A stretch of DNA of 37,440 nucleotides from a virus (Duplodnaviria > Heunggongvirae > Uroviricota > Caudoviricetes), in the IMG/VR virus record IMGVR_UViG_2541047705_000012. One strand, given 5' to 3'. Under the pieces are notes generated by a model. The model saw only the letters and a list, made by a program, of their open reading frames with translations, was not told the origin of the DNA and did no database searches. Below, one piece after another: positions 25,038 to 25,750 of the stretch. Both the position numbers and the translations under genes were made by a program. Position 1 is the first letter of the stretch, and each line of letters starts with the position of its first letter.

Positions 25038-25427
25038 TCAGGCAGCTGCACCCGCCGTTTTCTCGTACTTACTGATAGTGATCTCGACCTTCCCTTCCGG
25101 GATAACCGGTCCCCACTCCACCAGCATTCTTTTCACCTGACTGTCGTCTTCCCACACACCCGCGTGGGTCAGGGCGTCAAACAGCGCCTTGTTATAGTTG
25201 TCCAGATCGCGGATCCGGTTATCCGGAGGAAACAACACGATCTCCACTGAAGCAGGTGCCGACGTTGGTTTTGGCAGACGACGTAACTGCTCAACTATTG
25301 CTGCACACGCCGCGCTCTGGAATTTGCGCCCCGCCGCGCTTATCAGGCTCTTACCAGCAAACGCCCCTTTGTTGGGGTGTCGCCAGTACGTGTTCACGCT
25401 GGGCGGAAACGGCAGAATCAGCTTCAT
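25038..25427 (-). CDS. rusA: Holliday-junction resolvase RusA
   Basis: 129-aa ORF with the conserved RDLDN motif, in the ninR-like position. Confidence 0.85.
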   Translation of the reverse strand: MKLILPFPPSVNTYWRHPNKGAFAGKSLISAAGRKFQSAACAAIVEQLRRLPKPTSAPASVEIVLFPPDNRIRDLDNYNKALFDALTHAGVWEDDSQVKRMLVEWGPVIPEGKVEITISKYEKTAGAAA

Positions 25428-25750
25428 ACTTTCAGGCCCCTCTCATGTAACCAGTGGGCTGCACGCAGCCTGGCGTTTTCCTTACCGGCAAGCAGTGAGC
25501 GGATAATCCCGACCGCCTCGCTGTCGTCGTCCTTCACCGCGGTATGAAGAGTGATACCCCGGGCCACGCCACGCTTTATCGTGATGACGCCTTTTTTCTC
25601 CAGTGCTCGAAGATGCTCCACCGCTGCATTCACTGAACGGTATCCCAGCATGGTTGCCACCTCCTGATTGGTTGGCGGGAAGCCACGTTCTTTCTGATAA
25701 GAAATCAGCATATCCAGCACCTGCTGCTGGCATTGAGTTAACGTCGTCAT
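25424..25750 (-). CDS. LexA DNA-binding-domain protein lacking the S24 peptidase domain
   Basis: N-terminal ~70 aa align by eye with the LexA winged-helix domain (TQCQQQVLDMLISYQKERGFPPTNQEVATMLGYRSVNAAVEHLRALEKKGVI); the protein ends after ~108 aa with no Ser/Lys peptidase region. Confidence 0.65.
   Translation of the reverse strand: MTTLTQCQQQVLDMLISYQKERGFPPTNQEVATMLGYRSVNAAVEHLRALEKKGVITIKRGVARGITLHTAVKDDDSEAVGIIRSLLAGKENARLRAAHWLHERGLKV

Follow-up and report, generated by a model that had tools for sequence, protein, structure and literature searches.

What might a phage do with the DNA-binding domain of LexA when the domain that makes LexA cleavable has been left out? The question is raised by a gene of 108 codons in IMG/VR virus record IMGVR_UViG_2541047705_000012, a 37,440-nucleotide stretch of Caudoviricetes DNA that we analyzed at its full length and call the window; it is a prophage of phylogroup-B2-type Escherichia coli. 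We favor, at a probability of roughly 0.45, the reading that the product of this gene, here called the LexA-like protein, would be a RecA-insensitive repressor of the SOS-box type that is made in lytic growth. This judgment was reached from sequences and predicted structures.

A LexA DNA-binding domain without the S24 domain

The gene and the parts of its protein are laid out as follows (pLDDT, predicted local distance difference test; ORF, open reading frame).

25424..25750, minus strand: LexA-like gene, ATG start, 108 codons plus stop (TGA 25424-25426), from the ORF list, PF01726, and phrog_362
25547..25750, minus strand: residues 1-68, LexA-type winged helix-turn-helix (helices 6-22, 28-35, and 40-52; strands 56-58 and 66-68), from AlphaFold2 secondary structure
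25595..25636, minus strand: residues 39-52, recognition helix SVNAAVEHLRALEK, from alignments to LexA
25529..25546, minus strand: residues 69-74, acidic low-confidence linker HTAVKD, then DDSE (pLDDT <50 at residues 71-75)
25427..25528, minus strand: residues 75-108, conserved helical hairpin (helices 75-88 and 93-103), from AlphaFold2 and family conservation

We compared the protein with LexA by sequence and by predicted structure. Residues 1-65 matched the whole of the Pfam model LexA_DNA_bind (PF01726, model positions 1-65/65) with an E value of 2.9e-19 and 69 bits, where the cutoff is 23.7, and the full length (residues 1-108) matched phrog_362, annotated as "transcriptional repressor" (profile 1-106/106, E 5.9e-59). 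BLASTP against residues 1-68 of E. coli LexA gave 35 identities over 68 positions (51%) with zero gaps (E 2e-21); the residues of the LexA query agree with those in the PDB alignments. When we ran phmmer against all PDB chains, LexA entries alone were returned (1lea, 1jhh, 3jso, and others, E 7e-16 to 1e-5). The AlphaFold2 model, built from an 18-sequence family alignment, had a mean pLDDT of 83.6, and its residues 1-68 fit the LexA-DNA complex 3jso with a root-mean-square deviation of 1.0 Å over 67-68 residues at 50% identity, whereas generic winged-helix proteins of the PefI, MarR, and DtxR types scored 3-4 orders of magnitude worse than LexA structures against the same model. Taken together, the PF01726 and BLASTP matches, the LexA-only PDB matches, and the 3jso fit indicate that the similarity is LexA-specific and far above chance, which bears out the by-eye alignment with LexA in the initial annotation and sets aside a merely generic winged-helix resemblance.

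The same annotation had described a LexA-type domain without the autocleavage domain, and this description also stands. We found no Pfam match to the S24 peptidase domain (PF00717) in the protein, which stops at residue 108 and so ends without the C-terminal S24 domain that carries the catalytic Ser119 and Lys156 of LexA. The NCBIfam lexA equivalog TIGR00498 was matched over profile positions 1-91 of 203 only, with 69.3 bits, under its cutoff of 110.95. From the absence of the S24 domain, the insensitivity to RecA-stimulated self-cleavage that had been proposed follows. By sequence, the LexA-like protein is not the LexA repressor proper; it is a phage stand-alone LexA-domain protein, of a kind that is already known.

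As an object, then, this protein is common, already annotated, and not new. The NCBI Prokaryotic Genome Annotation Pipeline (PGAP) names it "LexA family transcriptional regulator" in UTI89 (WP_000210172.1). It was 94-99% identical in 50 of the 61 matching phage records, among them SfV (orf42), SfII, SfIV, mEp460, cdtI, and many Stx2a/Stx2c phages, where it is annotated as "LexA-like protein," "LexA DNA binding domain protein," or "transcriptional repressor." Stand-alone LexA-domain proteins are also found in tectiviruses, mycobacteriophages, and uncultured phages. The 1.6-kb module around the gene (window 24900-26500, which runs from the last part of PerC through Dam, the LexA-like gene, and RusA into the first part of KilA-N) has the same sequence, at 100% identity, in UTI89, ATCC 11775, S88, and other strains, and we found it in 2674 of 5426 complete E. 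coli genomes, with at most four copies per genome. Membership in a defense system was considered and rejected, as PADLOC gave just a weak match to a CARF-associated helix-turn-helix model (E 4e-4) along with methyltransferase models for Dam.

The helical tail and the DNA-reading residues

Beyond the linker, the protein ends in a short tail that AlphaFold2 models with confidence (block-mean pLDDT of 90, 88, and 77 over residues 81-108). Its motif, EAVxIIRALLAGEENARxRAxxWLxERG, is retained in full-length members at just 40-50% identity, with conserved hydrophobic positions V80, I82, I83, L86, L87, A93, A97, W100, and L101. No sequence relatives of the tail (residues 70-108) were detected in the PDB, and Foldseek searches with the AlphaFold2 model gave matches confined to the winged helix, none of them reaching the tail. 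A 7-residue BLAST match between AVGIIRS in the tail and AVGVIRN in the LexA C-terminus (E 0.38) was taken as chance. On the predicted model, this amphipathic hairpin of ~34 residues probably stands in for the lost S24 domain as a dimerization element.

There is an engineered counterpart to such an arrangement. The isolated LexA DNA-binding domain binds operators weakly, but SOS promoters are again strongly repressed once it is fused to a foreign dimerization module (a leucine zipper, for example), a principle on which LexA-based bacterial two-hybrid systems are built. Fusions of this type (the LexA(1-87)-Jun zipper and two-hybrid repressors) repress SOS-box promoters and are not cleavable via the RecA pathway. 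The phage protein shares with them the succession of a LexA DNA-binding domain, a linker, and a small helical element, here a putative oligomerization element; it differs in that it is natural, diverged (51% identity), and furnished with an unrelated hairpin tail. Separately, many database proteins of 140-350 amino acids (P0131, P0148, P0151, P0152, P0154, P0155, and others) carry two tandem LexA-type DNA-binding domains, which may be a single-chain answer to the dimer requirement.

Set beside E. coli LexA (residues 1-84; 1lea and 3jso), the likeness extends from the winged-helix fold (1.0 Å, 51% over 68 residues) through the linker, which aligned to the acidic LexA hinge QEEEE, and up to A88-G89 (window 25484-25489), which aligned to the LexA scissile bond A84-G85. 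The difference lies beyond this point, where the phage protein has a helical hairpin instead of the S24 protease and dimerization domain and is thus without self-cleavage or a LexA-type dimer interface. The initial annotation had also raised heterodimerization with LexA. This idea is unsupported, because LexA dimerizes via its C-terminal domain (PMC3091678), which is the domain missing here, and the tail is an unrelated hairpin without a PDB sequence match.

The similarity through the hinge to A88-G89, together with the TIGR00498 match to position 91, suggests a full-length lexA ancestor that was truncated just past the cleavage site. A host S24 domain might conceivably cleave A88-G89 in trans, but this is unlikely, given that the segment is predicted to be helical and the dipeptide is not conserved (the family has S or A at 88 and G or D at 89). 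Homology that runs past the DNA-binding domain into the hinge and cleavage-site region in this truncation-like way would also fit a decaying, functionless remnant of a captured lexA, an explanation that we consider very improbable: the ORF is intact, the non-LexA tail is conserved, and the module occurs in about half of complete E. coli genomes. Both the ORF length and the place in the nin region before DUF968 are kept across clades from 100% down to ~40% identity. This constancy of length and position, the pairing with RusA in the window and mEp390-type clades described below, and the presence in 2674 of 5426 genomes make purifying selection on the gene evident.

We then examined the residues that read DNA. 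In LexA, the DNA contacts of helix 3 are made by S39, N41, A42, E44, and E45 (PMC3091678). Four of these five are the same in the LexA-like protein (S39, N41, A42, and E45), as are H46, K53, and the wing residues R64-G65-I66; the differences from LexA are E44 to V, R28 to N, and P40 to V. Our conservation figures come from 117 family sequences, in which S39 is found in 117, N41 in 116, and A42 in 108, and the set formed by S39, N41, A42, H46, K53, and the wing R64-G65-I66 is 92-100% conserved. Nearly all positions that are ≥90% conserved in the family hold the E. coli LexA residue. The wing of LexA is held to set the rigid half-site spacing of LexA boxes (PMC8565304).

A characterized phage protein of similar make is gp6 of the Bacillus thuringiensis tectivirus GIL01, a truncated LexA homologue that is 44% identical to the host LexA domain (PMC6182141). 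With an altered recognition helix (K38), gp6 binds a non-LexA palindrome, GaCACAnnTGTGaC, that overlaps the -35 element of the late promoter P3, and activates this promoter (PMC6182141). Both gp6 and the LexA-like protein are phage-encoded, early-expressed, stand-alone LexA DNA-binding domains without a cleavage domain, and hhalign matched gp6 to the LexA-like family profile with a probability of 96.7% (E 4e-10, 64 columns). However, gp6 has 66 amino acids and consists of the winged helix only, whereas the LexA-like protein has the extra tail, and the phage studied here has Q-type late control. BLASTP gave no pairwise alignment with gp6, so gp6 was derived independently, from a LexA of the Firmicute type. 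In gp6, N41 is replaced by K (K38) and E45 by R, changes that fit its altered target and that are not seen in the LexA-like protein.

The gp6 case raises an alternative, namely that the LexA-like protein is a phage-specific transcription factor whose specificity has drifted, as in this truncated LexA homologue with its palindrome and its activation of P3, and which acts on a non-SOS phage operator, for example in timing nin-region or late genes. The departures from LexA at E44, R28, and P40 and the loss of E45 in one sub-clade speak for such drift, but the two positions at which gp6 has changed, N41 and E45, are as in LexA here. Further evidence on this alternative comes from the operon and from the SOS-box searches.

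Operon setting, SOS boxes, and relatives

According to the UTI89 annotation, the prophage is SfV-like, with an HK97-type head, a contractile tail, and a lambdoid early region. The features around the LexA-like gene are these.

29063-29737, plus strand: CI-type repressor with S24 domain (ymfK homologue), from the UTI89 annotation
22458..27832, minus strand: early-right operon with the LexA-like gene, comprising O-like replication protein, PerC, Dam, LexA-like, RusA, KilA-N, DUF968, and Q antiterminator, from Pfam, the UTI89 annotation, and a promoter scan
25747..26433, minus strand: upstream gene, phage Dam N6-adenine methyltransferase (PF05869, E 6e-45; annotation)
25759..25763, minus strand: GGGAG Shine-Dalgarno sequence, 8 nucleotides upstream of the LexA-like start and inside the end of the Dam gene, from reading the sequence
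25747..25750, minus strand: ATGA overlap of the Dam stop and the LexA-like start, from reading the sequence
25424..25427, minus strand: ATGA overlap of the LexA-like stop and the RusA start, from reading the sequence
25038..25427, minus strand: downstream gene, RusA Holliday-junction resolvase (PF05866, E 6e-15)

After the CI-type repressor, the minus strand carries the cro-like ymfT, ymfL, and DUF4222, then the genes of the operon in the order given, and then the lysis genes. The tight packing with the Dam and RusA genes that had been pointed out before was confirmed by the two ATGA overlaps. A promoter scan found no promoter-like site directly upstream of the LexA-like gene from which it could be transcribed during lysogeny. 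Immediately downstream of the Q gene, also on the minus strand, we found a pR'-like promoter at 22438-22409 (GTGACA-18-AAAAAT) followed by a strong tR'-like terminator hairpin at 22352-22331; this pair (22331-22438) is the expected Q-type late control unit. Three side observations concern the same region. The start of Dam is ambiguous, as the longest ORF begins at GTG 26433 (a 34-nucleotide overlap with PerC) and PGAP places the start at 26400 (a 1-nucleotide overlap). The sole intergenic break near the LexA-like gene is a 19-nucleotide gap between rusA and KilA-N, and a weak promoter-like match (TTAAGA-16-AATAAT, 25010-25037, minus strand) lies across it. Finally, PGAP uses the names yfdN, yfdP, yfdQ-family, yfdR, ymfK, ymfL, and ymfT in the early region (window 26400-33825, L001 21501-28926), which shows this region to be pieced together from relatives of the K-12 cryptic prophages CPS-53 and e14.

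We searched the window for SOS boxes in several ways. The exact motif CTGT-N8-ACAG occurred 0 times, and matches with one mismatch were at chance level (16 against 11.9 expected). A scan with a position-specific scoring matrix (PSSM), trained on 19 E. coli boxes, gave a best score of 9.1 bits in the window, below both the mean shuffle maximum of 11.9 and the weakest training box of 12.9. Allowing other spacings (CTGT-Nk-ACAG, k = 0-16), no site touched the intergenic DNA of the prophage. The SOS-box-like sites that the initial annotation had suggested looking for in the prophage are therefore not supported, and motif, PSSM, and spacing scans alike led us to reject SOS boxes as a cis target of the protein in its own prophage. 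Unlike lexA, the LexA-like gene has no SOS box upstream, and it lies in an early prophage operon, not at the lexA locus. Any LexA-type sites that the protein reads would therefore lie on the host chromosome or on mobile elements other than this prophage. The lack of LexA boxes in the prophage would also suit a transcription factor with drifted specificity; however, late control is already of the Q type, with its pR'-like promoter and tR'-like terminator, so a late-activator role like that of gp6 is not needed.

Relatives of the gene fall in part into mEp390-type E. coli phages, whose proteins are 44-49% identical. There, the replication genes come first, in some cases with Dam, and the gene overlaps rusA, which stands directly after it in 88 of 88 loci; next come an antirepressor-like gene, DUF968, and Q. 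In some of these loci, we observed an SOS box of 25-27 bits ~3.2-3.8 kb upstream of the LexA-like gene (L029:430-449, L035:499, L021:203, and L066/L067:218) or 5.2 kb upstream (L006:836). The box lies at or inside the immunity region in L029 and L006, which suggests LexA-controlled immunity or antirepressor functions in those mEp390-type phages.

A sister clade, 40-45% identical to the window protein and with the same tail, has Klebsiella phages as its closest named relatives (67-71% identity). Among its 34 loci, 25 have an SOS box of 17-30 bits ≤700 nucleotides upstream of a co-oriented LexA-like gene, 19 have a DinI homologue (PF06183, E 1e-23), and 8 have a UmuD'-like ORF driven by an SOS box. 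These elements come together in an "SOS island" (L109:2837-4527, also in L092-L113 and L120) made up, in L109, of an SOS box (30 bits), the UmuD'-like ORF, a terminator-like hairpin, a second SOS box (27 bits), the DinI homologue, a phrog_1813 ORF, the LexA-like gene, a phrog_1212 ORF, and DUF968; the phrog_1813 and phrog_1212 ORFs are of unknown function. The UmuD'-like ORF (L109:2877-3206, 109 amino acids, phrog_3469 "UmuD-like"), which has its own SOS box and terminator-like hairpin, begins with GFPSPAKDY, the motif after the UmuD cleavage site, and in a BLASTP alignment its SAGFAV faces the SGDSM motif of UmuD; the ORF may encode a UmuD' mimic that is pre-processed and non-catalytic. We found no convincing terminator between dinI and the LexA-like gene in L109, and in this clade the LexA-like gene is itself probably SOS-induced, to judge from its arrangement.

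The company of other shortened SOS-network mimics links the family to SOS control, although this link is circumstantial. DinI and UmuD' act by protein-protein contacts with RecA. Lambdoid nin-region SOS modulators (DinI-like and UmuD'-like) share with the LexA-like protein the same niche, a co-oriented gene string in the sister clade, and the character of shortened SOS-network mimics; they differ in having other folds, in acting on RecA filaments and not on DNA operators, and in being absent from the window prophage, where the LexA-like gene has neither DinI-like nor UmuD'-like neighbors. With four of the five helix-3 contacts and the wing kept, and with the sister clade placing the gene in SOS-box-controlled units, occupancy of LexA-type operators, as first proposed for this protein, is plausible. 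Inverted-repeat scans around the gene in four sister-clade loci gave nothing shared or convincing as a candidate operator, and this result, like the canonical SOS boxes that the clade adjoins where a novel motif might have stood, counts against a factor with drifted specificity. Overall, we consider that explanation, the strongest rival to the reading that we favor, rather unlikely.

A further possibility is that the protein is an adaptor, whose tail or winged helix recruits or modulates RusA, Dam, RecA, or LexA, for example in targeting the resolvase or titrating an SOS component. The ATGA coupling to rusA, which holds for the window clade and for each of the 88 mEp390-type loci, and the DinI-like and UmuD'-like neighbors in the sister clade, which act through RecA contacts, are in line with such a role. 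However, conservation is highest at precisely the residues that in LexA contact DNA or form the wing, several contexts have no Dam, comparison with PADLOC and PDB sequences showed no similarity to known interaction modules, and RusA is not adjacent in most sister-clade (Klebsiella-type) loci. We hold an adaptor role to be quite improbable. A universal functional pairing with RusA was likewise rejected, being true in the window and mEp390 clades and false in most of the Klebsiella-type clade.

A possible brake on the SOS response

In the reading that we favor, the LexA-like gene would encode a cleavage-proof paralogue of the host SOS repressor LexA, whose winged helix retains the residues that read the CTGT half-site in LexA. 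Since the gene has no promoter of its own and the early-right operon places it after the replication genes and before Q, the protein would be made once the CI-type (S24) prophage repressor has been inactivated by cleavage, or after infection. It would then form dimers through its helical tail, and these would sit on the CTGT-N8-ACAG operators that host LexA has just left, in the host chromosome and in co-resident elements. Having no catalytic domain, the protein could not be switched off by activated RecA. As a result, the SOS regulon (recA, sulA, and umuDC, and LexA-controlled functions of rival prophages and colicin plasmids) would be damped or re-closed during phage replication. We infer this DNA target, the dimerization through the tail, and the physiological effect from what was directly established, namely the fold and the LexA-specific homology, the conserved residues with four of five contacts and the wing kept and without the gp6-type substitutions, the missing S24 domain, the conserved tail, the place in the operon, and the SOS neighborhood of the sister clade.

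Several points weigh against this reading. There are zero SOS boxes in the window prophage, and nothing in cis ties the window copy to LexA operators. No family member keeps E44 (the residue is A or V, never an acidic one), R28 has been replaced, and the window protein has V for P40. In the sub-clade whose link to SOS boxes is tightest, L takes the place of E45 (helix SSPNAVALHL), so a LexA-like specificity does not hold throughout the family. The sister-clade loci are interrelated and are not independent lineages, and the nin region gathers accessory genes; the link to the SOS island could thus be mere co-location. Dimerization by way of the tail is putative, and gp6 offers a precedent for a phage LexA-domain protein that has come to recognize a different site and to act as an activator (PMC6182141). 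The gain from shutting off the SOS response in a cell already bound for lysis is not obvious. Lastly, a search of the full-text literature for the enterobacterial LexA-like family found no functional study.

The sole characterized analogue, gp6 of a Bacillus phage, activates a phage late promoter instead, so the enterobacterial family is not a solved case. What is new here is the conserved hairpin tail in the place of S24, the LexA contacts and wing that are kept, unlike in gp6, the lack of an SOS box in the prophage, and the position of the sister-clade gene downstream of near-consensus SOS boxes. If the LexA-like protein merely regulates a phage promoter, it would be an ordinary accessory regulator. 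A broader picture, possible but doubtful to us, is that a RecA-proof substitute for LexA is carried by prophages in about half of all E. coli genomes, that it would re-close the host SOS regulon after derepression of the prophage (recA, error-prone polymerases, SulA, and LexA-controlled antirepressors or colicins of rivals), and that it would form a phage SOS toolkit with the DinI-like and UmuD'-like genes of the sister clade. If this is true, lysogeny would alter mutagenesis, antibiotic tolerance, and the cross-induction of co-resident prophages. The SOS response, induced mutagenesis, and the induction of many prophages and toxins are all switched on by the cleavage of LexA. With a look-alike that RecA cannot cleave, found in 2674 of 5426 complete E. 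coli genomes as well as in Stx2 phages and Shigella serotype-converting phages, this switch could be weakened or altered in pathogens exposed to DNA-damaging antibiotics, and such a protein could also mediate competition among co-resident prophages.

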